A stretch of DNA of 64,000 nucleotides from positions 832,001-896,000 of the forward strand of contig CAWBNQ010000003.1 in NCBI GenBank assembly GCA_963790205.1, given 5' to 3'. The notes under the pieces were generated by a model. That model saw only the letters and a program-made list of their open reading frames with translations. It was not told the origin of the DNA and ran no database searches. Shown one piece after another: positions 2,234 through 43,833 of this stretch. The stretch's first letter is position 1, and each line of letters begins with the position of its first letter. The position numbers and the translations under genes were made by a program. This DNA comes from Nitrospirota bacterium (lineage in GTDB: Bacteria; Nitrospirota; UBA9217).

Positions 2234-2242
2234 AGAACATAA

Positions 2243-2325
2243 AGCTGGGGGAGCCGCATGGCTGAGAGTCCTTCGGGACGACCCTTGGAACCTGATCCGG
2301 GTAGTGCCGGCGTAGGGAAGGCGTG
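2243..2325 (+). promoter_or_regulatory. TPP (THI-box) riboswitch aptamer
   Basis: Conserved blocks GGGGAGCC...GGCTGAGA, GACCCTTGGAACCTGATCCGGGTAGTGCCGGCGTAGGGAAG, upstream of thiS-thiG. Confidence 0.95.
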
Positions 2326-2352
2326 TAGATCAATTCTTTTATAACCTTTCGA

Positions 2353-2383
2353 GCCGTATCCTTCCGGATACGGTTTTTTGTTT
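2353..2383 (+). terminator. Intrinsic terminator, expression platform of the TPP riboswitch
   Basis: Hairpin GCCGTATCC-TTCC-GGATACGGT followed by TTTTTGTTT. Confidence 0.85.
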
Positions 2384-2401
2384 AAAGATAAGGACCCGGG
2401 C

Positions 2402-2617
2402 ATGCTGATCTCATTGAATGGCGAAAAAAAAACAGTGCCTGATGACTTGACAATCATCGCATTGCTTGAGCATCTAAAGATTCAACCGCAGCGTGTCGCC
2501 GTTGAGTTGAATCTGGACATCGTGAAGAAGGACAATTACGCCGCGACGGTCGTAAGGGACGGTGACAGTCTGGAAGTGGTGAGCTTCATGGGAGGGGGAG
2601 AATGTAGTCCGGAGTAG
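2402..2617 (+). CDS. thiS: Thiamine sulfur carrier protein, with a C-terminal extension after the Gly-Gly motif
   Basis: MLISLNGE...[10 protein letters not shown]...[13 protein letters not shown] then ECSPE*. Confidence 0.92.
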
Positions 2618-28386: not shown

Positions 28387-28554
28387 CTTGCGAGTCGCCC
28401 GGCTTTCTATGCTGTTATACAATCCTGCCGTTGATAAATCGGGGAAGGAACTCTCCCGGCTGAAGGACAGAACACTCTCTACGATGTAAGCGTGATATAA
28501 TTAAAGTCAGGCAGGGTTCATGTATTAGCCGATAGAATGAACGGGAGGTGTATT

Positions 28555-28959
28555 ATGAGAGAATTCAGATGCGAAAGCCTGGGGAACAAATGCTCATGGA
28601 AGCATATTGCAAAGACCGAGGAACTGCTTGCCGATGTTGTGGCCATCCATTTGCGTGAAGTTCACGGCGTAAAAGAGGTCGGGCCCGATATGCTGGGGAA
28701 GATAAAAAACCTTTTTCTGTATCCCAGTGCAGTCGATGCAGCAGGAGCAGAGGATCTCGTTTTGAAGGAGTATGCCTGCAAGATGGATCCGGCGTGCGCC
28801 TGGCGGTATATAGCCATGACCGAAGAGCTGATCGCAGACGGCGTGGCTGTCCATGCCAGGGAATCCCACGGGATCAAGGAGTTTACGCCTGCAATGATAG
28901 CCAACGTCAAGAAGTCGGTCCATGAATGGGACCTGGTGAAAGAGAGGAAAGTAGCGTAA
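28555..28959 (+). CDS. Tandem DUF1059-like small metal-binding protein
   Basis: Two repeats of C-x5/6-C.W...A.TEEL.AD.VA.H.RE.HG; SD GGAGGTG. Confidence 0.8.
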   Translation: MREFRCESLGNKCSWKHIAKTEELLADVVAIHLREVHGVKEVGPDMLGKIKNLFLYPSAVDAAGAEDLVLKEYACKMDPACAWRYIAMTEELIADGVAVHARESHGIKEFTPAMIANVKKSVHEWDLVKERKVA

Positions 28960-32640: not shown

Positions 32641-33834
32641 TTACCGCTTCGCGAATATCCCGTCAAGGGCATCAAGAAGCAGGTCGATCTCTTCCTCGGT
32701 GATGATGAGCGGCGGCATGAACCGCAGCACCCGGTCCATGGTGCAGTTGATGAGGAAGCCTTCCCTGATACAGGAGGCGACGATGTCCTTGCCTTCGAAG
32801 TCAAGCTCCATTCCGATGAGCAGGCCCTTGCCCCGCACGTTCTTCACGAAACCGTATTTTTTCTTGAGCGCGGCGAGCCCTTCCATGAACTGCCTGCCGA
32901 GCTGGTCCACTGCCTGAATGATGATATTGTCTTCGAGCAGAGCGTCGAGAGAGGCCAGGGCCGCCGCGCAGGCGAGCGGGTTGCCGCCGAAGGTGGAACC
33001 GTGCGAGCCTGGGGTGAATGCCTGGGAAGCCTTGTCCGTAGCAATCAGTGCTCCGATGGCCATGCCGGCGCCGAGCCCCTTTGCGAGCGCGGCCGCATCC
33101 GGCGTAATGCCGGAATGTTCATAGGCATAGAGCCTTCCGGTCCGTCCCATGCCGGTCTGTACCTCATCGAGCATGAGCAGGATGTTGTGACGATCGCAAA
33201 TATCCCGGAGCGCTTTCAGATAGCCTTCAGAAGGCACGTTCACTCCGCCTTCGCCCTGCACGGGTTCGACCAGCACGGCGCAAGTCCGTTCGTTTACCGC
33301 CTCTTCGACGGCTTTCGCGTCGTTGAACGGCACGTATCGGAACCCGGCGACGAGCGGTTCAAAGGATTTGTGGATCTTTTCCTGGGCAGTGGCCGCAAGT
33401 GCGCCCATGGTCCGGCCATGAAACGAGCCGTGCATGGTGATGATTTCGTACCGGTCTTGTTTTAAAACCTCCCGGCTGTAGCGCCGCGCGAGCTTGATGG
33501 CGGCCTCGACGGCCTCGGTGCCCGAATTACAGAAAAACGCCTTGTCGGCGAAGGAATTCTTGACCAGCGCCTTTGCAAGGTTGATCTGCGGCTCGTTATG
33601 GTAGTGATTTGACACATGCATCAACCGCTGGGCCTGCTTCTGGAGCGCGACGACCACCCGCGGGTGGCAATGACCGAGATTATTCACGGCCACGCCGGAG
33701 ACGAAATCGAGGTACTCCCTGCCGTCGGAATCGTACACCTTTGCGCCACGGCCTTTAACAAACACGAGCGGCTGCCGCCCGTAGGTGTTCATGATATATT
33801 TTTGAGAGTCTGCAAGAATGTCGCTTGTAATCAT
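32641..33834 (-). CDS. argD: Acetylornithine aminotransferase
   Basis: NSGTEA, SFHGRT, EPVQGEGG, DEVQTG, AKGLG and HGSTFGGNP motifs; adjacent to argF. Confidence 0.96.
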   Translation of the reverse strand: MITSDILADSQKYIMNTYGRQPLVFVKGRGAKVYDSDGREYLDFVSGVAVNNLGHCHPRVVVALQKQAQRLMHVSNHYHNEPQINLAKALVKNSFADKAFFCNSGTEAVEAAIKLARRYSREVLKQDRYEIITMHGSFHGRTMGALAATAQEKIHKSFEPLVAGFRYVPFNDAKAVEEAVNERTCAVLVEPVQGEGGVNVPSEGYLKALRDICDRHNILLMLDEVQTGMGRTGRLYAYEHSGITPDAAALAKGLGAGMAIGALIATDKASQAFTPGSHGSTFGGNPLACAAALASLDALLEDNIIIQAVDQLGRQFMEGLAALKKKYGFVKNVRGKGLLIGMELDFEGKDIVASCIREGFLINCTMDRVLRFMPPLIITEEEIDLLLDALDGIFAKR

Positions 33835-33879
33835 GGTGACCAACGTAGCATAATCATTATGAAAAATCAAATAAAAACT

Positions 33880-34062
33880 GGCCCTGCAGCAGGAATGAGG
33901 ATCCTCGGTACGAAGCGAAGTGCCCCGGGGATCGTTGAGGCGCGTCGATCGTTAACGAGGCTGGAAAGCGCCCGGCGGGACCTTACTCCACCCGGGCCTG
34001 GCGACGAGGGGGCGCTGGCGCCCATTGCAACCCGGCTGCAGCCATGGGTCCCGTCTTTTTTT
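33880..34062 (+). ncRNA. Structured RNA candidate of about 170 nt, rod-like with an internal bubble (possible 6S RNA)
   Basis: GC-rich block between AT-rich flanks with nested pairings CTGCAGC/GCTGCAG, AATGAGG/CCCATT, AGTGCCCC/GGGGCGCT, TCGTTG/CGACGA and AGGC/GCCT; G-U pairs favour the + strand; T7 run at 34056-34062. Confidence 0.5.
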
Positions 34063-34125
34063 GCAAAATTGTTTTATTTCCCGTTATTTTCAGCCCTGCC
34101 TGACAAGTATCCCGAGTATTTTTTA

Positions 34126-34154
34126 TTGACAAAACAGGGATACTGTTTTATTAT
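34126..34154 (+). promoter_or_regulatory. Sigma70-type promoter of the hom operon
   Basis: TTGACA (34126-34131), 17-nt spacer, TATTAT (34149-34154). Confidence 0.7.
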
Positions 34155-34355
34155 CAATTTTACTTTTTAAATTGCGCGGTTAGATGAATAAACTGTTTGA
34201 TAAAGAAAGAGATAGCCATGTCTGAGCGCTTTGCCGGGAGCAAGAAGCTGCCGTCCTGCGTCTTTGCGATTGTTCTGTGTCAATCAGCGTCAAAAGATTT
34301 CCTCTGTGTCTGAGTGCCGTGGTAATATCTATTTCATAAATTTCAGGTGGAAGAG

Positions 34356-35669
34356 ATGACATCGAAGAAATCAATCAACGTCGGCATCATCGGTTTCGGC
34401 ACGGTCGGCACGGGAACGGCACGCATCCTGATCGAGAATGCAGACATCATCAAGCGCAGGCTCGGCGCGCCGGTCGTGCTCAAGATGATATCGGACCTCG
34501 ATGTAAAGCGCGATCGGGGCATAAATCTGAGCGGGGTTAAGCTCACGAGCGATGTGAAGGATATCATCAACAACCCCGGCATCGATATCGTCGTGGAGCT
34601 CATCGGCGGGTATAAACCGGCTAAAGAGTTCATCCTCGAGGCGATCAAGAACAAGAAACACGTGGTGACCGCGAACAAGGCGCTCCTGGCCGTCCATGGA
34701 GAGGAGATATACTCCGCAGCGGAGAAGGCCGGCGTCACCGTCGGATACGAAGCCTCTGTCGCGGGTGGAATCCCGATCCTCGCCGCCGTGAGGAGCGGAC
34801 TTGCAGCGAACAACATCAGGTCCATCTACGGCATCGTGAACGGCACCTGCAACTACATCCTGACGCTCATGACGAGCGCCGGCAGGAAGTTCGATGAGGT
34901 CTTGAAGGAAGCCCAGGCAAAAGGCTACGCCGAGGCCGATCCGACTTTCGATATCGAGGGCATCGATTCGGCTCACAAGCTTGCGGTCCTCACGATGCTC
35001 GCCTTCGGCACGCCGGTCAGGTTCGACGACATCTACACCGAGGGCATCTCAAAGATAACACCGCTCGATATCGATTTCGCGAGGGACCTCGGCTACAAGA
35101 TCAAACTCCTCGCCATTACCAAGACGGTGAATGACGAGATCGAAGCCCGCGTCCATCCGACCATGCTGCCCGAGACCTATCCCATTGCCACCGTTGACGG
35201 TGTGTTCAATGCGCTTTCGGTGGTCGGCGACGCGGTCGGCCCTACCATGTTCTACGGCCGGGGCGCCGGCGACATGCCCACGGGAAGCGCTGTGGTAAGC
35301 GATATCATCGACATCGGCAGGGACATCCTTGCGGGCTGTACTGACCGGTCGCCGGTCACGGCTTTCCGTGAGCGTAAGCCGCTTAAGATACGAAAGATGG
35401 ATGATATTACGTCGTGCTATTATCTCCGGTTCTCGGTTCTGGATAGACCGGGCGTTATGTCGCGCATTACGGGGGTGCTCGGCAGGAACAATATCAGCAT
35501 CTCCTCCATGATCCAGAAGGGACGCAAGGTGGACGAGGCCGTACCGGTCGTGATGATGACCCACGAAGCTATAGAACACAACGTTCGCAAGGCGCTCGCC
35601 GAGATCGATACCATGGACTGCGTGGCAGGGGCCACGGTCGTCATCAGGGTGGAAGAGGGAAAGCAGTAA
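34356..35669 (+). CDS. hom: Homoserine dehydrogenase with ACT domain
   Basis: GFGTVG, VVTANK, EASVAGGIP, NGTCNYIL, GYAEADPTFDIEG and GRGAG motifs; ACT DRPGV. Confidence 0.97.
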   Translation: MTSKKSINVGIIGFGTVGTGTARILIENADIIKRRLGAPVVLKMISDLDVKRDRGINLSGVKLTSDVKDIINNPGIDIVVELIGGYKPAKEFILEAIKNKKHVVTANKALLAVHGEEIYSAAEKAGVTVGYEASVAGGIPILAAVRSGLAANNIRSIYGIVNGTCNYILTLMTSAGRKFDEVLKEAQAKGYAEADPTFDIEGIDSAHKLAVLTMLAFGTPVRFDDIYTEGISKITPLDIDFARDLGYKIKLLAITKTVNDEIEARVHPTMLPETYPIATVDGVFNALSVVGDAVGPTMFYGRGAGDMPTGSAVVSDIIDIGRDILAGCTDRSPVTAFRERKPLKIRKMDDITSCYYLRFSVLDRPGVMSRITGVLGRNNISISSMIQKGRKVDEAVPVVMMTHEAIEHNVRKALAEIDTMDCVAGATVVIRVEEGKQ

Positions 35670-35755
35670 TTGCGGATTTCAGATTTCGGATTTCGGATTG
35701 ACAGGCAAGCACGCTGCTTATAATATTCCGCAATTCGCAATGCGCAATCCGCAAT
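35669..35755 (+). repeat. Inverted heptamer tandem-repeat cassette with a promoter between the arms
   Basis: ATTGCGG ATTTCAG ATTTCGG ATTTCGG ... CCGCAAT TCGCAAT GCGCAAT CCGCAAT; TTGACA-17-TAATAT inside. Confidence 0.8.
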
Positions 35756-35765
35756 GGAGGTTTCA

Positions 35766-36026
35766 ATGGCTGACGACATTAAAGTTGATAAGTCGCTCGA
35801 CATAAAAGGCCAGGTCTGCCCGTATACGTTTGTCCGTTCGAAGCTCGCCATCGAGAAAATGAACCTTGGCGAGGTCCTCGAGATCGTCACGGACCACAAA
35901 CCGGCATCGGAAAACGTTCCCCGGAGCATGGAGAACGAGGGCCAGAAAGTGTTGAAGATCGAGCAGACCGCTGAAAAAGAGTGGCACATTTTCGTGAGGA
36001 AGGACAAAGAAAAGAAAAAGGCATGA
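35766..36026 (+). CDS. TusA/SirA-family sulfurtransferase
   Basis: LDIKGQVCPY motif, GEVLEIVTD; SD GGAGG. Confidence 0.92.
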   Translation: MADDIKVDKSLDIKGQVCPYTFVRSKLAIEKMNLGEVLEIVTDHKPASENVPRSMENEGQKVLKIEQTAEKEWHIFVRKDKEKKKA

Positions 36027-36104
36027 AATGTGAAGAGTGAAACGTGCATGATCAATTTCCAGAACCCTTTCCCGGTTCACGTTTCACGTATCACGAGGTA
36101 ATCT

Positions 36105-36908
36105 ATGGAATTTACCGAAGACCAGATACTGCGTTACAGCAGACATATTCTCTTACCCGAGGTCGGGGGCGACGGGCAGGAGAAGCTCCTGAACGCCAGG
36201 GTCGTGCTCGTGGGCGCCGGAGGGCTCGGCTCTCCGGTGGGGTACTACCTTGCCGCAGCAGGTGTGGGCACGATCGGCGTGATCGACAATGACCGCGTGG
36301 AGATATCGAACCTCCAGCGCCAGATCGCCCATAACACGAGCAGGATCGGGGTGTTCAAGGCGGACTCGGCGAAAGAGACCTACGAGACGCTGAACCACGA
36401 TGTTAAGGTCGTTACCCATAAGGAACGTCTCACGTCTGCGAACATCATGGATATCATCAAAGATTACGACATCGTGGTTGATGGAAGCGACAACTTCCCG
36501 ACGAGATATCTCGTGAACGATGCCTGCGTGATGCTCAAAAAGACGCTCGTGAGCGCAGCGGTCTTCCGGTTCGAGGGACAGGTGATGACCATCTTCCCGG
36601 GCCAGGGTCCGTGTTACCGCTGCCTGTTCGAGGTACCGCCTCCGCCCGGCATGGTGCCGTCCTGCCAGGAGGCGGGCATTCTCGGCGTGGTGACCGGTGT
36701 GATCGGGACCATCCAGGCCACCGAGGTCATTAAAGCGATCCTCGGCATCGGTCATCCGCTGAAGGGGAAGCTCCTGCTGTGGAACGCGCTTGACATGAGC
36801 TTCCGCACGGTCAAAGTGCCGCGGAACAAGGAATGCCCGGTGTGCGGAGAGAAACCTACCATAACGGAACTGATCGATTACGAATGGTTCTGCTCGATGA
36901 GCCATTGA
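36105..36908 (+). CDS. MoeB/ThiF-family E1-like adenylyltransferase (no rhodanese domain)
   Basis: RYSRH, GAGGLG, SNLQRQ, DNFPTRY, CYRC, SCQEAG and CPVC motifs. Confidence 0.95.
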   Translation: MEFTEDQILRYSRHILLPEVGGDGQEKLLNARVVLVGAGGLGSPVGYYLAAAGVGTIGVIDNDRVEISNLQRQIAHNTSRIGVFKADSAKETYETLNHDVKVVTHKERLTSANIMDIIKDYDIVVDGSDNFPTRYLVNDACVMLKKTLVSAAVFRFEGQVMTIFPGQGPCYRCLFEVPPPPGMVPSCQEAGILGVVTGVIGTIQATEVIKAILGIGHPLKGKLLLWNALDMSFRTVKVPRNKECPVCGEKPTITELIDYEWFCSMSH

Positions 36909-36980
36909 GAAATGCGGAATGCGGTATGTTTGGAACTCGCAAGGCGTTAATGGGCCGCGGCGTCCTCCCCGGAAAAAACG

Positions 36981-37391
36981 ATGTTGATATTAAGGAAATC
37001 CGATCTCCAAAGTATCTTCGAACATTGTGACCGTGAATTTCCTAATGAGGCATGTGGAATTCTCGCTGGCAGGGACAGGACGGTTGAAAAAATATATGCC
37101 CTCGCGAGCGAGAAGCCGAGTCCGATCGCTTACCGCATAGACTCGAAAGAGCATATTCGTGTTATACGGGAGATGCGCGACGAGGGGAGAGATCTGGTTG
37201 GCATCTATCACTCGCATACGGGCAGCCCGGCATACCCGTCTTCAACCGATGTAGAACTCGCGTACTATCCGGAAGCCGTGTATGTGATCGTATCGCTCCT
37301 GGACAGAAAGGACCCCGCAATAAAGGGGTTTCACATTATTGAAGGCGAGATCACGGAAGTGCCGGTGGATGTTATTTCGGAGGGGAAATAG
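36981..37391 (+). CDS. JAMM/MPN+ (M67, Mec+-like) metallopeptidase
   Basis: PNEACG and YHSH-x7-S-x2-D (YHSHTGSPAYPSSTD). Confidence 0.93.
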   Translation: MLILRKSDLQSIFEHCDREFPNEACGILAGRDRTVEKIYALASEKPSPIAYRIDSKEHIRVIREMRDEGRDLVGIYHSHTGSPAYPSSTDVELAYYPEAVYVIVSLLDRKDPAIKGFHIIEGEITEVPVDVISEGK

Positions 37392-37394
37392 CAG

Positions 37395-38627
37395 ATGACG
37401 TACGTAAAAGGCTTGCGGTGTGTCGAGTGCGGCAGGGAATACAAGATCGACCCCATTTATGTGTGCGATTTCTGTTTTGGACCGCTTGAGGTGACCTACG
37501 ATTACGAGCGGATCAAGAAGGACATGACAAGGCAGAAGATCGAGTCGCGGCCGCACAATATGTGGCGGTACCGCGAGCTCCTCCCGATCGACGGAGATCC
37601 GGTCACGGGTTTCGATTCCGGCTTCACGCCGCTCATGAAAGCCAACAACCTGGCCAAGGCATGGGGCGTGAAGGAAATTTATATCAAGGACGACTCCGTG
37701 AACCACCCGACGTTGTCGTTCAAGGACCGGGTCGTGGCCGTGGCGGTCACCAAGGCCAGAGAGTTCGGGTTCGATACGGTGGCGTGCGCATCCACGGGCA
37801 ATCTGGCGAATTCCGTTGCAGCGCAGGCGGCCCGGGCGGGCATGAAGCGCTTTATTTTCACGCCGTCGGACCTTGAGCTGTCGAAGACCATCAGCTCCCT
37901 TATCTATCAGCCGAACCTGGTGACCGTGGACGGCAATTACGACGAGGTGAACCGGCTCTGCTCCGAGGTCGCGAACAAGTATCGGTGGGCCTTTGTGAAC
38001 ATCAACATCCGGCCGTTCTACGGCGAGGGTTCCAAGTCCCTCGGTTTCGAGGTCGCGGAACAGCTCGGCTGGAAGACGCCGCACAACATCGTTGTGCCCA
38101 ACGCCAGCGGTTCGCTCATGACGAAGATCTGGAAGTCCTTTAAGGAACTTGAAAAGCTCGGGCTTGTTCCGCCGGTGAAGACCAGGGTGTTTGCGGCACA
38201 AGCCACGGGTTGCAATCCGATCACCACGGCGATCAAGGAAGGGAGCGATGTCATCAAGCCGGTTAAGCCCAGGACGATCGCCAAGTCGCTCGCCATCGGG
38301 AACCCGGCTGACGGATACTATGCGACGAAGGTCACGCGGGACACCGGCGGGTATGGCGCCGATTCCTCGGACCAGGAGATCGTGGACGCGATGAAGCTCC
38401 TTGCCGAGACCGAAGGAGTGTTTGCCGAGACCGCGGGCGGCGTGACCGTGTCCGCCGCCAAAAAGCTCGTGGAGTCGGGAAGGATATCGAAGGACGAAAC
38501 GCTTGTCATCTGCATCACCGGCAACGGGCTCAAGACCACCGAGGCTGTCGTAGACCATCTTCGGAGGCCGACGCCGATCAAGCCGAACCTCGAGTCGTTC
38601 GAGGAACTGTTGAAGAAAATACAGTAG
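37395..38627 (+). CDS. thrC: Threonine synthase-like PLP enzyme (fold type II) with an N-terminal zinc knuckle
   Basis: CVEC...CDFC; PTLSFKDR PLP-lysine motif; CASTGN; EGSKS; ITGNGLK. Confidence 0.88.
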   Translation: MTYVKGLRCVECGREYKIDPIYVCDFCFGPLEVTYDYERIKKDMTRQKIESRPHNMWRYRELLPIDGDPVTGFDSGFTPLMKANNLAKAWGVKEIYIKDDSVNHPTLSFKDRVVAVAVTKAREFGFDTVACASTGNLANSVAAQAARAGMKRFIFTPSDLELSKTISSLIYQPNLVTVDGNYDEVNRLCSEVANKYRWAFVNINIRPFYGEGSKSLGFEVAEQLGWKTPHNIVVPNASGSLMTKIWKSFKELEKLGLVPPVKTRVFAAQATGCNPITTAIKEGSDVIKPVKPRTIAKSLAIGNPADGYYATKVTRDTGGYGADSSDQEIVDAMKLLAETEGVFAETAGGVTVSAAKKLVESGRISKDETLVICITGNGLKTTEAVVDHLRRPTPIKPNLESFEELLKKIQ

Positions 38628-38745
38628 TTTTTTCGCCACAGAGAGCGGAGAAGAAGGACCGAAGGCTAAAACTCAGGATTTTAATTTCGGTGCTCTCAGC
38701 GTGCTCTGCGGTAAATTTTGAATGCTGTTTCAGGAGGAGTACCAG

Positions 38746-39024
38746 ATGGCAATTAAAGTAAGAATCCCGACCCCGCTGCAGAAACTCACGAACGGCAAGG
38801 CCGAGGTGGAGTGCAGCGCGAAGAACATCCTCGAACTCGTCGATGCCCTTGAAAAGGACTATCCCGGCATGAAAGAGCGTTTGTCGGACGGCGGGAAGAT
38901 CCGGCGGTTCATCAATATCTACGTGAACGAAGAGGACATCCGATTCGTGAACAAGGAAGAGACCACACTGAAAGACGGCGACAACGTCTCGATCGTACCT
39001 GCCATAGCAGGCGGACGCGGGTAA
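38746..39024 (+). CDS. MoaD/CysO-like ubiquitin-fold sulfur carrier ending GG-RG
   Basis: VRIPTPL...[13 protein letters not shown]...[24 protein letters not shown]. Confidence 0.93.
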
Positions 39025-39139
39025 GAAAGCCAGAAGAGGTGAAGATGAGAGGTTGAGAAGCTGAGCATTCGCAGCTTTCGTCGTATCGCGACTTCCCAAT
39101 TTCCCAGCTTCTTAATTTCTGTTTTACCAAGGAGGGAAC

Positions 39140-39382
39140 ATGGCAACGAAGAGAGTCAAACTGACGTTTCCGCAGGAACTGATCAAAGAACCCGTGGTCT
39201 TCACCATGGCAAAAAAGTTCGACGTGATGCCGAATATCCGCCGTGCCAAAGTCACCGAGAGCGTGGGCGAAGTGGTGCTTGAGCTCGAAGGCGCTGAAAA
39301 GAAACTTGAAGAAGGTATTAAATATCTCAAAGAGCGCGGCGTAAAGGTTGAGGCGGTTGAGGGAGATGTCGTAAGTTCATGA
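39140..39382 (+). CDS. Stand-alone NIL-domain protein
   Basis: KLTFPQELIKEPV...PNIRRAKV...GEVVLELEG...GVKVE pattern; SD AAGGAGG. Confidence 0.85.
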   Translation: MATKRVKLTFPQELIKEPVVFTMAKKFDVMPNIRRAKVTESVGEVVLELEGAEKKLEEGIKYLKERGVKVEAVEGDVVSS

Positions 39383-39537
39383 TTGTGCCTTTGGTTGTTG
39401 TTTTCATGCTATAAACGATTGTGTCGCCCGGATGCTGGCGGTTTCAAATGCCAAAGCCCAAAGTGTAACTGTTTCGGATTTGAATTTTATTTTTGTGTTT
39501 GATGTGAACTTCGTTCTTTGCCATTTTTCTTTGAACT

Positions 39538-40767
39538 ATGAAATATATCATCTTACTCGGTGACGGGATGGCCGATAGGCCGCATGCGGAACTTGGAGGC
39601 AAAACATGCCTGCAGGCGGCAAGGACGCCGAACCTCGACCAGCTTGCGACCTTGGGGCAGGTGGGCATGGTGCATACGGTGCCCGAGGGGTTTCCGCCGG
39701 GCAGCGACGTGGCCAATCTCACGGTCATGGGCTATGACCCGAGAAAATACTATACCGGTCGTTCTCCACTTGAGGCGGCAAGCATCGGCGTGGAACTGGG
39801 GCTCGATGACGTGGCTTTCCGCTGCAATCTGGTTACACTCAGGATCAGCGGCGGGAAATCCGCAACCGGCGTTAAAGGGCGCCATGCGATCATGGAGGAC
39901 TTCAGCGCCGGCCACATTACCACGCAAGAGGCGCGTCTGCTTATAGAAGAGATCGACAGTAAACTCGGTTCCGATCGCATCCGTTTTTATCCCGGCGTAA
40001 GCTACCGGCACCTGATGGTCTGGAAGGGCGGGAAGGACAAGATCGAGTGCGCGCCTCCCCACGATATCCAGGACAAGGACATCCAGGACTATTTTCCGCG
40101 GGGTGAAGGCGATGAGACCATCAATTCCCTGATGGAAGCATCGACCGATATACTCATGGCCCACCCCATAAATAAGACGAGACTAGAAAACGGCAAGCGT
40201 CCCGCGAACAGCATCTGGCTCTGGGGCCAGGGAAAAAGACCGACCATGCCGACCTTCCGGGAAAAGTACGGTCTCGAAGGCGCCATGATCTCGGCGGTCG
40301 ACCTCACCAAGGGTATCGGCATCTACGCCGGGTTCGAGGTGATCACCGTGCCCGGCGCAACGGGTTGGCTCGACACGAACTACGTGGGCAAGGCCGAGCA
40401 CGCGCTCTGGGCGCTCAAAACAAAAGACATCGTGTATGTCCACGTCGAGGCTCCGGACGAAGCAGGCCACACCGGCGACCTCAAGAACAAGATCAAGGCC
40501 ATAGAGGATTTCGATGAATTCGTGGTCGGGAACATCATCCACGGGATGAAGCAGTTCGATGAATACCGGATCATGGTCCTCCCGGACCATCCGACGCCGG
40601 TCGAGATCAGGACACACTCGAGTGAACCGGTGCCGTTCGCTATCTATGCTAACACCGAAGAACGTAAAGGGGGTCCCGTGACCTACGACGAGCGGATCGC
40701 GTATCGGAAAGAAGCCCTGGTGTTCAAAGAGGGCTACAGGCTGATGGATTATTTTTTGAAGAAGTAA
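39538..40767 (+). CDS. apgM: Cofactor-independent phosphoglycerate mutase family protein (ApgM type; proposed homoserine kinase)
   Basis: GDGMAD, PGSDVAN, TGRSPLEA, PPHD, HVEAPDEAGH and DHPTP...RTH motifs. Confidence 0.9.
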   Translation: MKYIILLGDGMADRPHAELGGKTCLQAARTPNLDQLATLGQVGMVHTVPEGFPPGSDVANLTVMGYDPRKYYTGRSPLEAASIGVELGLDDVAFRCNLVTLRISGGKSATGVKGRHAIMEDFSAGHITTQEARLLIEEIDSKLGSDRIRFYPGVSYRHLMVWKGGKDKIECAPPHDIQDKDIQDYFPRGEGDETINSLMEASTDILMAHPINKTRLENGKRPANSIWLWGQGKRPTMPTFREKYGLEGAMISAVDLTKGIGIYAGFEVITVPGATGWLDTNYVGKAEHALWALKTKDIVYVHVEAPDEAGHTGDLKNKIKAIEDFDEFVVGNIIHGMKQFDEYRIMVLPDHPTPVEIRTHSSEPVPFAIYANTEERKGGPVTYDERIAYRKEALVFKEGYRLMDYFLKK

Positions 40768-40853
40768 CAAGTTTGCCACGAAGTAACACCGTTACGAAGC
40801 AGCCCCGGATTTCTTAGCGGCTTGGTGACTTAGCGGCGAAAGTGAGGAAATAA

Positions 40854-42071
40854 GTGCTGATCGTTCAGAAATACGGCGGTACGTCGGTGGGAAACCCGGA
40901 GCGGATCAAGAACGTGGCAAAGCGTGTCGTCCGCACCAAGGAAGAGGGCCATGATGTTGTGGTGGTCCTCTCGGCCATGAGCGGCGAGACGGACAAACTG
41001 ATCAACCTTGCCAACCAAGTGAGTGAGAACCCGGATCCCCGTGAAATGGACATGCTGGTGTCCACGGGCGAGCGCGTGACCATCGCTCTTCTGGCCATGG
41101 CGATCCAGTCGCTCGGCCACAAGGCGCAGTCGTTTACCGGAAGGCAGGCGGGGATCGTCTCGGACAGCGTGCATACCAAGGCGCGGATAGAAAAGATCTC
41201 CGGTGAGCGGGTCAAACAGGCGATCAGGGAAGGGAAGATCGCCGTGGTCGCAGGATTCCAGGGCATCAACGAGCAGTCCGATGTAACGACGCTGGGCCGC
41301 GGAGGATCGGACCTTTCCGCCGTAGCAGTTGCGGCTGCGCTCAAGGCGGACCTCTGCGACATCTATACGGACGTGGACGGCGTGTATACGACGGACCCGA
41401 ACATGGTGCCGCAGGCCAGAAAACTCGACAAGATTTCCTATGACGAGATGCTTGAGCTGGCGAGCCTCGGGGCCAAGGTGCTCCAGACACGCTCTGTCGA
41501 GTTCGCTAAAAAATATAATGTTCCGGTAAGGGTACTCTCGAGTTTCAACGATAACCCGGGGACCCTCGTGACCAAGGAGGATCCTGATATGGAAAAAGTG
41601 GTGGTGTCCGGCGTGGCGTACGACAAGAACCAGGTAAAAGTGACGGTAACGGGCGTGCCGGACAAACCCGGCGTGGCAGCGAAAATATTCAACGAAATCT
41701 CGAACAACAATATCATCGTCGATATGATCATCCAGAACATCGGCGAGGGCGGGCTTACGGACATGTCCTTCACCGTGCCGAAGACGGATTCCAAAAAAAT
41801 CATGGAACTCATGAAGAAGGTCGTTGCCGAGATCGGCGCCAAGGGCGTTGCCGTGAAGGAAGATATAGCCAAGATATCGATCGTCGGCGTGGGTATGCGG
41901 TCCCACTCGGGCGTCGCCGCCAAGATGTTCTCCGCCATGGCCAAAGAGGGGATCAATATCATGATGATCAGCACGTCGGAGATCAAGATCTCCGTCGTGA
42001 TCGATGCCAAGTACACCGAACTCGCCGTCCGGGTGCTTCACGAAACCTTTGAGATGGACAAGGCCGCCTGA
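40854..42071 (+). CDS. lysC: Aspartate kinase
   Basis: [28 protein letters not shown] and two ACT domains. Confidence 0.97.
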
Positions 42072-42152
42072 TTGCGGATTGTAGATTGCGAATTGCCGAA
42101 TAAAGACCTCTATTGATCGAAGCTTTTTAATCCGCATTCCGCAATTCGCAAT
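42071..42152 (+). repeat. Empty inverted heptamer tandem-repeat cassette
   Basis: ATTGCGG ATTGTAG ATTGCGA ATTGCCG ... CCGCATT CCGCAAT TCGCAAT. Confidence 0.8.
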
Positions 42153-43833
42153 GAGGATATTTGAAAAAGCGAATGATATTTCACAATACGATATGAAACC
42201 AAGCGTACAGCTCTACGATACCACGCTCCGCGACGGGGCGCAGGCCGAGGACGTGAACTTCTCGGTAGAGGACATGGTGCGCGTGGCCAGGAAACTTGAC
42301 CAGTTCGGGGTGCACTATATCGAAGGCGGATGGCCCGGATCCAACCCACGGGATGTGGAGTTTTTCAAGGAGATGCGTCGTGTCAAGCTGACGCGGGCCA
42401 AGCTCGTTGCCTTCGGGGCCACCCGGCGGGCCCGGCTCAAGGCACAGGAAGACCCCAGCCTGAAGGCCCTCGTTGCGTCCGGTGTCTCCGCGGCGACCAT
42501 CTTCGGCAAATCATGGGACCTCCATGTGCACAAGGCGCTCAGGACCACGCTCGACGAGAACCTTCATATGATCGCCGAATCGGTGGCGTTCCTGAAGAAG
42601 CATCTGGACAAAGTGTTTTATGACGCTGAGCACTTTTTCGACGGCTTTAAGGCGAATCCCGATTACGCAATCAAAAGCCTCCTGGCTGCGGAGCAGGCCG
42701 GGGCGGACTGCCTGGTGCTCTGCGATACGAACGGCGGCACATTGACGGCCGATCTCGAAAAGATTATCGCGATCGTCAAGCAGGGGATCAATGCGCCCTT
42801 CGGCATCCATGCCCATAACGATGCCGAGGTTGCGGTGGCAAATTCCCTTGCCGCCATCAGGCTGGGGGCGGTCCAAGTCCACGGGACGATCAACGGCTAT
42901 GGAGAGCGGTGCGGGAATGCCAACCTGTGTTCCATCATCCCGGCGCTTAAGCTTAAGATGGGGATGGACTGCATATCCGGAGCGAACCTCGCGAAGCTCC
43001 GGGATGTCTCCCGCTACGTCGATGAACTGGCAAACCTGCCCCATCGCAAGCGTCAGCCCTACATCGGCGACAGCGCCTTTGCGCACAAGGCAGGCGTTCA
43101 TGTCGATGCCGTGGCAAAGAGCCCGCTCACGTACGAGCACATCATTCCGGACCAGGTTGGGAACAAGAGGCGGATCCTCGTGTCCGACATGGCCGGGAAG
43201 AGCAACATCCTCCAGAAGGCCGCGGAACTGGGCATCCAACTTTCGAAGGACAGCCCGGAACTCGGCGCGATCCTCCGGAAGGTGAAGGAACTGGAGAACG
43301 AGGGCTACGAATTCGAAGGTGCCGAAGGGTCGCTCGAGCTCCTCATGCTGCGCGCAGGACACAATTACGAGTCTGTTTTTACCATGTTCGACCGCATCGA
43401 CTACCGTATCCTGACGGAAAAGCGGAAGGTCGACCCGCATCCCGTGAGCGAAGCGACCGTGACCGTCGAGGTGGGCGGGAAGGTGGAGCACACCGCTGCC
43501 TGGGGCAACGGGCCGGTGAACGCCCTGGACAAGGCGCTCCGCACGGTGCTGCCGAAATATTTCCCGGGCAGGGGCCTGGAGAACGTACGGCTGCTCGACT
43601 ATAAGGTGCGGGTGCTGACCGCTGCCGAGGGCACGGCCGCCCGGGTGCGGGTGCTCATCGAGTCCGGGGACGGCAAGAACAAATGGGGCACTGTCGGCGT
43701 GTCGGAAAACGTGATCGAGGCGAGCTGGCAAGCGCTCGTGGACAGCATCGAATACAAGCTTTTACGAACAGCGAAACAAACTTCAAAAAGAAAGCGGGTT
43801 CAGCCGCAAAGTCACAAAGCCACGAAGAAATAA
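42151..43833 (+). CDS. cimA: Citramalate synthase (start may be ATG 42193)
   Basis: YDTTLRDGAQ, EGGWPGSNP, FGKSWDLH, DAEHFFDG, HAHND, GERCGN and GNGPVNALD motifs. Confidence 0.93.
   Translation: MRIFEKANDISQYDMKPSVQLYDTTLRDGAQAEDVNFSVEDMVRVARKLDQFGVHYIEGGWPGSNPRDVEFFKEMRRVKLTRAKLVAFGATRRARLKAQEDPSLKALVASGVSAATIFGKSWDLHVHKALRTTLDENLHMIAESVAFLKKHLDKVFYDAEHFFDGFKANPDYAIKSLLAAEQAGADCLVLCDTNGGTLTADLEKIIAIVKQGINAPFGIHAHNDAEVAVANSLAAIRLGAVQVHGTINGYGERCGNANLCSIIPALKLKMGMDCISGANLAKLRDVSRYVDELANLPHRKRQPYIGDSAFAHKAGVHVDAVAKSPLTYEHIIPDQVGNKRRILVSDMAGKSNILQKAAELGIQLSKDSPELGAILRKVKELENEGYEFEGAEGSLELLMLRAGHNYESVFTMFDRIDYRILTEKRKVDPHPVSEATVTVEVGGKVEHTAAWGNGPVNALDKALRTVLPKYFPGRGLENVRLLDYKVRVLTAAEGTAARVRVLIESGDGKNKWGTVGVSENVIEASWQALVDSIEYKLLRTAKQTSKRKRVQPQSHKATKK

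Follow-up and report, generated by a model that had tools for sequence, protein, structure and literature searches.

A threonine synthase-like gene in a sulfur-carrier operon of Nitrospirota probably belongs to a MetM/MetO route to homocysteine

Introduction

What does an enzyme that resembles threonine synthase make when its gene lies between those of a JAMM peptidase and a ubiquitin-like sulfur carrier? The question is raised by a 64,000-nucleotide (nt) stretch of a Nitrospirota genome (assembly GCA_963790205.1, contig CAWBNQ010000003.1, positions 832,001 to 896,000; here called the window). In it, nine open reading frames spaced 3-155 nt apart, all on the + strand, run from hom through genes for TusA, an E1-like enzyme, the peptidase, the ThrC-like enzyme, the carrier, a NIL-domain protein and an ApgM protein to lysC. 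This run, its order and its families were borne out as described in the initial annotation, which had proposed that the ThrC homologue forms homocysteine from O-phosphohomoserine and a thiocarboxylated carrier. Our analysis supports that proposal. Gene content, the masked Gly-Gly end of the carrier, the residues that mark the enzyme, its Streptomyces orthologues under riboswitch control and complementary distribution among genomes make it very probable that the operon produces homocysteine by the MetM/MetO route.

The core of this route is already published, and the operon adds another member to it; the initial annotation, which knew of no biochemical demonstration of such a reaction, has been overtaken on this point. 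In the available text of GapMind 2026 (10.1101/2024.10.14.618325), a thiocarboxylate route from O-phosphohomoserine to homocysteine in Streptomyces albulus is credited to Hasebe et al. 2024 (AEM 90:e01247-24), who are also cited for it in the accessible parts of PMC12172450 and 10.64898/2026.09.15.751699. The components named in the first of these excerpts are the carrier MetO, the peptidase Mec, MoeZ, and MetM, which is said there to be frequently misannotated as threonine synthase. Mec serves in carrier maturation by the same account, where the initial annotation had assigned the peptidase to the release of homocysteine. A S-adenosylmethionine (SAM) riboswitch is reported for S. albulus metM (PMC12172450, in part). 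In the literature as available, the GapMind text included, we found no account of NIL or TusA as part of this route and none of a Nitrospirota MetM; Hasebe et al. 2024 and the GapMind supplements may have it.

In the window, LysC, Hom and the ApgM protein, identified below as HomK, would supply O-phosphohomoserine. The JAMM peptidase would clip the tail from the carrier, the E1 and TusA would convert the exposed Gly-Gly to a thiocarboxylate, and phosphate would be exchanged for carrier sulfur by the ThrC-like enzyme to give homocysteine. Threonine would then most likely come from a plant-type ThrC encoded elsewhere in the genome, and methionine from a weakly matching, MesB-like core synthase. 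The activity of the window enzyme, the donor role of TusA and the trimming by JAMM are inferred.

The threonine synthase-like enzyme

The enzyme (37395..38627) exceeds the cut-off of the threonine synthase profile TIGR00260 (280.7 against 167.1) without having the canonical residues of Thermus ThrC. It has an N-terminal CxxC/CxxC and a pyridoxal phosphate-binding lysine, Lys110. Its AlphaFold model (predicted local distance difference test 82.9) matches threonine synthase folds in Foldseek, a match that does not separate MetM from ThrC.

Where Thermus ThrC has T88, S155, R160 and the G187-N-x-G-N loop, the window enzyme has L137, N204, Y209 and A-S-G-S-L, so that the position of Thermus N188 is a serine (loop A237-S-G-S240). 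T88, N157, R160 and N188 are phosphate-binding residues of Thermus ThrC. L137, R206 and Y209 recur in 43/43 MetM-like proteins, whereas the corresponding Thermus positions T88, N157 and R160 are T, N and R in all six Bacillus-type and all 11 plant-type ThrC proteins compared; two divergent plasmid proteins and 11 cysteine or cysteate synthase rows were left out of this comparison. The signature L137, R206, Y209, ASGS separates MetM-type enzymes from true ThrC.

A quick tree with 73 rows sets 43 MetM-like proteins apart on a single branch with a Shimodaira-Hasegawa-like approximate likelihood ratio (SH-aLRT) support of 99. Membership of this group had been defined beforehand by similarity score to the window protein, so what the tree tells is that an actinobacterial, carrier-linked gene of Nonomuraea stands within the group and that Bacillus-type and plant-type ThrC fall outside it. 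The product of the Nonomuraea gene is 54% identical to the window enzyme and scores 458 bits, against 118-191 bits (best 170-191) for solved threonine synthases; a SAM-I riboswitch lies upstream of it and a carrier ending in Gly-Gly downstream.

Used as a query, the Nonomuraea gene led to 80 actinobacterial loci, of which 59 are titled Streptomyces and none S. albulus. The 59 Streptomyces proteins are 51.2-53.4% identical to the window enzyme. A carrier lies downstream of the enzyme gene in 59/59 of these loci and in 80/80 actinobacterial loci, and the Streptomyces carriers are 43-51% identical to that of the window. A SAM-I riboswitch precedes the gene in each of the 20 Streptomyces loci tested, and the products of these riboswitch-linked genes share the L / R..Y / ASGS signature with the window enzyme.

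The carrier and its activation

The carrier (38746..39024; PF02597) is a MetO/CysO-like protein of 92 amino acids that, among solved structures, matches 4n6e_B and 3dwg_C best (3dwg, E 3e-19). It ends ...AIAGG-RG; its Gly-Gly is therefore masked and would have to be exposed by JAMM before use. In 37/41 Nitrospirota carriers Gly-Gly is followed by further residues, variable in sequence, in keeping with trimming by JAMM. The peptidase of the operon (36981..37391; PF14464; motif E..HSHT..S.TD) would, on this sequence evidence, trim the carrier tail, and tblastn found no second JAMM copy in the genome. In one phylum locus (G118, L057:9229-9741), carrier and NIL are read in one frame with Gly-Gly internal, so that JAMM would have to cut a polyprotein.

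The E1 (36105..36908; PRK05690 MoeB, 304 against a cut-off of 266) has ThiF as its only Pfam domain and no rhodanese. Its C-terminal Cys263 is invariant in 17/17 aligned relay E1s and might stand in for the missing rhodanese domain as the site of a persulfide. The TusA-like sulfurtransferase (35754..36026; PF01206; CPYT motif, Cys22) is, by analogy, the putative persulfide donor in place of that domain. E1s lacking rhodanese accompany SirA/TusA in sulfur-assimilation operons, and a donor role of SirA was proposed, in the available portion of PMC1779556.

The E1 and JAMM likely have other clients in the genome. Near the start of the window (2237-2617), a thiamine pyrophosphate riboswitch is followed by a ThiS ending GGG-ECSPE, a masked carrier that would need JAMM. 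On another contig (L004:6760-7426, G000 C14), the MoaD frame does not stop after its Gly-Gly but goes on as a MoaE-like sequence, the rest of which lies in a different frame; MoaD and MoaE are fused here, apparently with a frameshift. One other E1 homologue is encoded in the genome, beside nif genes.

Substrate supply, the NIL protein and gene linkage

The initial annotation had made ApgM the supplier of O-phosphohomoserine. That role stands, and the protein (39538..40767) can be named more exactly. It is, by profile and residues, HomK, since it passes TIGR02535 (573 against a cut-off of 446) and has S56 and the determinant glutamate, E304, equated with E299 of BT2402 by motif spacing and not by direct alignment; D9, D350 and H351 are also in place. 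HomK, also ThrB2 or TIGR02535, is a characterised family that includes BT2402 (GapMind 2026, 10.1101/2024.10.14.618325, Appendix 3). No thrB over cut-off was found in the genome. The flanking genes are hom (34347..35669; PRK06349, 565 bits against a cut-off of 205; alternative ATG start at 34356), for homoserine dehydrogenase with an ACT domain, and the aspartokinase gene lysC (40854..42071; profile match), after which cimA is next.

The NIL-domain protein (39140..39382; PF09383) stands alone in the window. Of the 120 top-scoring longer NIL homologues, almost every one is fused to a carrier, two are fused to E1 and none lists a PALP domain, although some of these records may be read-through of neighbours. 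NIL tracks the carrier and E1 rather than the ThrC-like enzyme.

The ThrC-like gene, the carrier and NIL are consecutive in 20/20 phylum loci fetched (in one as a carrier-NIL fusion), and for this reason we do not regard the linkage as chance. The complete order hom-TusA-E1-JAMM-enzyme-carrier-NIL occurs in 6/20 and the arrangement E1-enzyme-carrier-NIL-E1-JAMM in 9/20, and in 5/20 a Bacillus-type thrC directly follows NIL in the same operon. Close homologues of the genes carry Nitrospirota labels.

The genome, which is 98.3% complete, has a second thrC, of plant type (C3:458107-459453). Directly after it lies a Cys/Met-family gene (C3:459446-460654) whose product has tobacco cystathionine gamma-synthase (CGS) 1i41 as its best solved match (359 bits against 302 for the next); the pair (C3:458107-460654, L001:13107-15654) is unlinked to the operon. 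We found no metA, metX or DUF39 (PF01837, 0 matches) in the genome, and neither of its Cys/Met-family enzymes passes TIGR01326. Where the initial annotation had seen danger for its proposal in a sole thrC, a normal methionine pathway and unconserved linkage, we found a second thrC, no metA, metX or DUF39, and linkage throughout the loci fetched. No MetH or MetE domain was found in the genome. A 347-amino-acid protein (C8:96539-97582, L110:6539-7582) matches methionine synthase weakly; we take its family to be that of the MesB-like core synthases, and it is probably a folate-independent enzyme of that kind.

Distribution across Nitrospirota

We sampled 150 genomes of the phylum, 37 from the family of the window genome and 113 from outside it. 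Outside the family, the enzyme is present in 103/113 genomes, with a fragment in one more. Among the nine without it, six have DUF39 and two MetX, and DUF39 is present in 0/103 enzyme-positive genomes; the DUF39 and MetM routes never co-occur in the sample. The gene metA was found in 0/151 genomes, a CGS orthologue is present in only 5/113 outside-family genomes, and in 97/103 enzyme-positive ones no metA, metX, DUF39 or CGS orthologue was found. The carrier is in 103/103 of the enzyme-positive genomes and missing from 8/9 negative ones. One outside genome (G125, L137:7271-9298) has MetX and no enzyme, yet keeps a diverged carrier (46%), NIL and homK. Judging by the genomes sampled outside the family, Nitrospirota seem to make homocysteine by MetM/MetO as a rule, a route hidden under the threonine synthase label.

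Enzyme loss within the family

The family of the window genome differs. Only 10/37 relatives have the enzyme, and 27/37 are without it; plant-type ThrC is present in 35/37 and CGS in 34/37, with the two genes side by side. The homK locus could be recovered from 26/27 enzyme-negative relatives. NIL is kept in 26/26 of these loci; in 23 of them the enzyme gene is neatly excised and the carrier gene lies directly beside that of JAMM. The 24 carriers read from enzyme-negative relatives are intact, with mean uncorrected proportions of nonsynonymous and synonymous differences of 0.086 (pN) and 0.67 (pS). Loss of the whole relay along with the enzyme is ruled out by the retained carrier, NIL and JAMM loci. 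One genome (G015) keeps hom-E1-NIL-homK without TusA, JAMM or carrier.

An insertion of eight residues in JAMM occurs in 21/22 enzyme-negative genomes against 1/11 positive ones, while the HomK tree interleaves the two kinds. Because the insertion divides by enzyme status and the tree does not, the sequences suggest that JAMM and the enzyme move as a unit.

Plant CGS uses O-phosphohomoserine and cysteine (PMC13257386, in part). The MetM route is dispensable in this family, where plant-type CGS offers a second route from O-phosphohomoserine. With the query used, 17/26 relatives that have CGS but not the enzyme yielded no second Cys/Met-family enzyme, and PatB exceeds its cut-off in 0/37 family genomes, so the cystathionine route looks incomplete. 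Since the enzyme has been deleted and the carrier genes kept in most close relatives, the carrier likely feeds a second enzyme besides MetM.

A rather unlikely explanation is that, in the family, plant-type CGS has come to use the thiocarboxylated carrier for direct conversion of O-phosphohomoserine to homocysteine, NIL then being a methionine-sensing partner of the carrier/E1 step and not of MetM. This would explain the kept carrier, TusA, E1, inserted JAMM and NIL, as well as the failure to find a beta-lyase in most such genomes. Counter to this, G015 has CGS but no carrier, and free sulfide is an ordinary alternative that these genomes may use. If true, carrier-dependent homocysteine synthesis would gain in CGS a third kind of enzyme, combining MetM's substrate with a MetB/MetY-type fold. 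The family is in any case a natural deletion experiment, with only the enzyme gene gone in the 23 loci and carrier and NIL conserved, and it narrows two questions: the carrier's other sulfur acceptor, and the ligand or partner of NIL.

Alternative explanations

Several observations weigh against assigning the window enzyme to MetM. A Microcystis homologue (51.6% identical to S. albulus MetM, with an adjoining carrier 47.25% identical to MetO) is a threonine synthase and deaminase in vitro, and methionine was not raised in cells, according to the accessible part of PMC12172450. Proteins of other Streptomyces stand as a proxy for S. albulus MetM in our comparison. Seven of the nine enzyme-negative genomes outside the family belong to one family, so the complementarity reflects about three events and not nine. 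The carrier is kept in 25/27 enzyme-negative relatives, and linkage in the family alone therefore does not tie carrier to enzyme. No SAM riboswitch was found anywhere in the window, and no Rfam RNA of any kind in 33800-42200 at E<=1. Finally, given plant-type CGS, flux through MetM in this genome may be small. As to the riboswitch, none of the SAM type lies directly upstream in six phylum loci checked (the sole SAM-II match, in L059, is about 3 kb off), and the Microcystis homologue likewise has none (PMC12172450, in part).

The enzyme could instead act as a threonine synthase/deaminase, as a second copy or by moonlighting, with the relay being a general module for ThiS and MoaD activation that only shares its operon. 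The TIGR00260 match, a position where thrC would be expected in hom-homK-lysC, the Microcystis activities reported in PMC12172450 (in part), the tailed ThiS and the MoaD running into MoaE as other likely clients, and a relay that outlasts enzyme loss in the family are all in keeping with this. We nevertheless consider it quite unlikely: it has L, Y and S where Thermus ThrC has T88, R160 and N188, a true ThrC adjoins the locus or is encoded elsewhere in the genome, the Streptomyces orthologues are under SAM riboswitches, and the distribution of the enzyme is complementary to that of DUF39 and MetX.

Alternatively, the enzyme may use O-phosphohomoserine with free sulfide while the carrier serves something else. 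In favour of this, the organism encodes dsrB (over cut-off at L111:2606-3679, G000 C14, with a dsrA-like frame and cysE nearby), and in the family the carrier persists independently of the enzyme. This is very unlikely in view of the carrier's presence in all 103 enzyme-positive genomes outside the family, its absence from 8/9 negative ones and its place after the enzyme in 80/80 actinobacterial loci.

That the relay is a CysO-type cysteine system, in which O-phosphoserine or O-acetylserine would be the substrate of the ThrC-like enzyme or of the genome's CysM, agrees with the solved matches of the carrier and with a CysM orthologue after lysC in the same run of genome G003, but is barely plausible, for the enzyme scores only 31.5 bits on the cysteine synthase A profile, the genome already has CysE, CysM (C1, unlinked to the carrier) and a second cysteine synthase, CysM orthologues occur without carrier in 7/7 genomes of family f3 and in G015, and the relay-linked synthase in L055 is CysK-like. 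The f3 genomes and G015 also rule out CysM as the carrier's obligate client; CysM could still be a second one.

A cysteate synthase identity finds no support, the enzyme staying below the TIGR03844 cut-off (58 against 325). The true cysteate synthase is encoded at C1:560353, within a cluster (C1:553193-562721, L002:1193-10721 of G000) of genes for a MtaA/CmuA-type methyltransferase, a corrinoid protein, a corrinoid activator and an Hdr-like Fe-S protein. This cluster holds the cysteate synthase, over its cut-off, together with a fused sulfopyruvate decarboxylase, so that in this bacterium genes for coenzyme M-type biosynthesis lie next to a methyl-transfer system.

Promoters, repeats and other features

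A sigma70-like match precedes hom (34126..34154, + strand; TTGACA-17-TATTAT, 11/12; a consensus match only), and a second promoter-like match precedes tusA (35698..35726, + strand; TTGACA-17-TAATAT). The signal is weak, with nine promoter-like sites found against 5.8 +/- 2.7 in shuffles. Going by the second match, the sulfur relay may have its own transcription start before tusA. Related short intergenic inverted repeats (ATTGCGGATT-type) lie at 35669-35755 and 42071-42153 of the window, and one of these repeats encloses the promoter-like site before tusA. A tandem DUF1059 protein is encoded at 28537-28959.

Comparison with known systems

The mycobacterial CysM/CysO/Mec+ system (3dwg) shares with the window a closely similar carrier, a phospho-activated substrate and a JAMM peptidase. 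It differs in that the linked enzyme here is ThrC-like and not CysM, and the product would be homocysteine.

The Wolinella system HcyS/HcyF/HcyD/MetY reportedly combines a masked-Gly-Gly carrier and a JAB peptidase with O-acetylhomoserine and a MetY-type enzyme. The window resembles it, and operon type 4e in the available portion of PMC1779556, in the masked carrier, the JAB peptidase and an E1 without rhodanese accompanied by SirA/TusA. In contrast to the Wolinella route, no metX and no TIGR01326 MetY-type enzyme was found in the window genome. A separate Wolinella-type cluster, with two MetY-like genes, a Gly-Gly carrier, E1, JAMM and a TusA-like gene, was seen in one relative (G057, L138:10476-16510).

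In the DUF39 route, which starts from aspartate semialdehyde and involves NIL/ferredoxin (PMC5764234, in part), a NIL domain is likewise tied to homocysteine synthesis; unlike that route, the window NIL has no ferredoxin, and no DUF39 was found. The pair at C3:458107-460654 is of the type of plant CGS and threonine synthase, yet bacterial. HomK agrees with HomK/ThrB2 (BT2402) in its score over the cut-off, its place next to hom, S56, D9, the D-H pair and a glutamate at the determinant position, and we found no difference between them.

The closest comparison is with MetM/MetO/Mec/MoeZ of Streptomyces, whose MoeZ we take to have a rhodanese domain. The window differs in having no SAM riboswitch, an E1 without rhodanese, an adjacent TusA and a NIL protein; its carrier tail is RG, and variable among Nitrospirota, where that of Streptomyces is none or C; the whole relay lies inside hom-homK-lysC, and the enzyme is dispensable in the family. 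In both, a ThrC homologue is followed by a MoaD-like carrier and accompanied by O-phosphohomoserine supply, an E1 and a JAMM-type peptidase.

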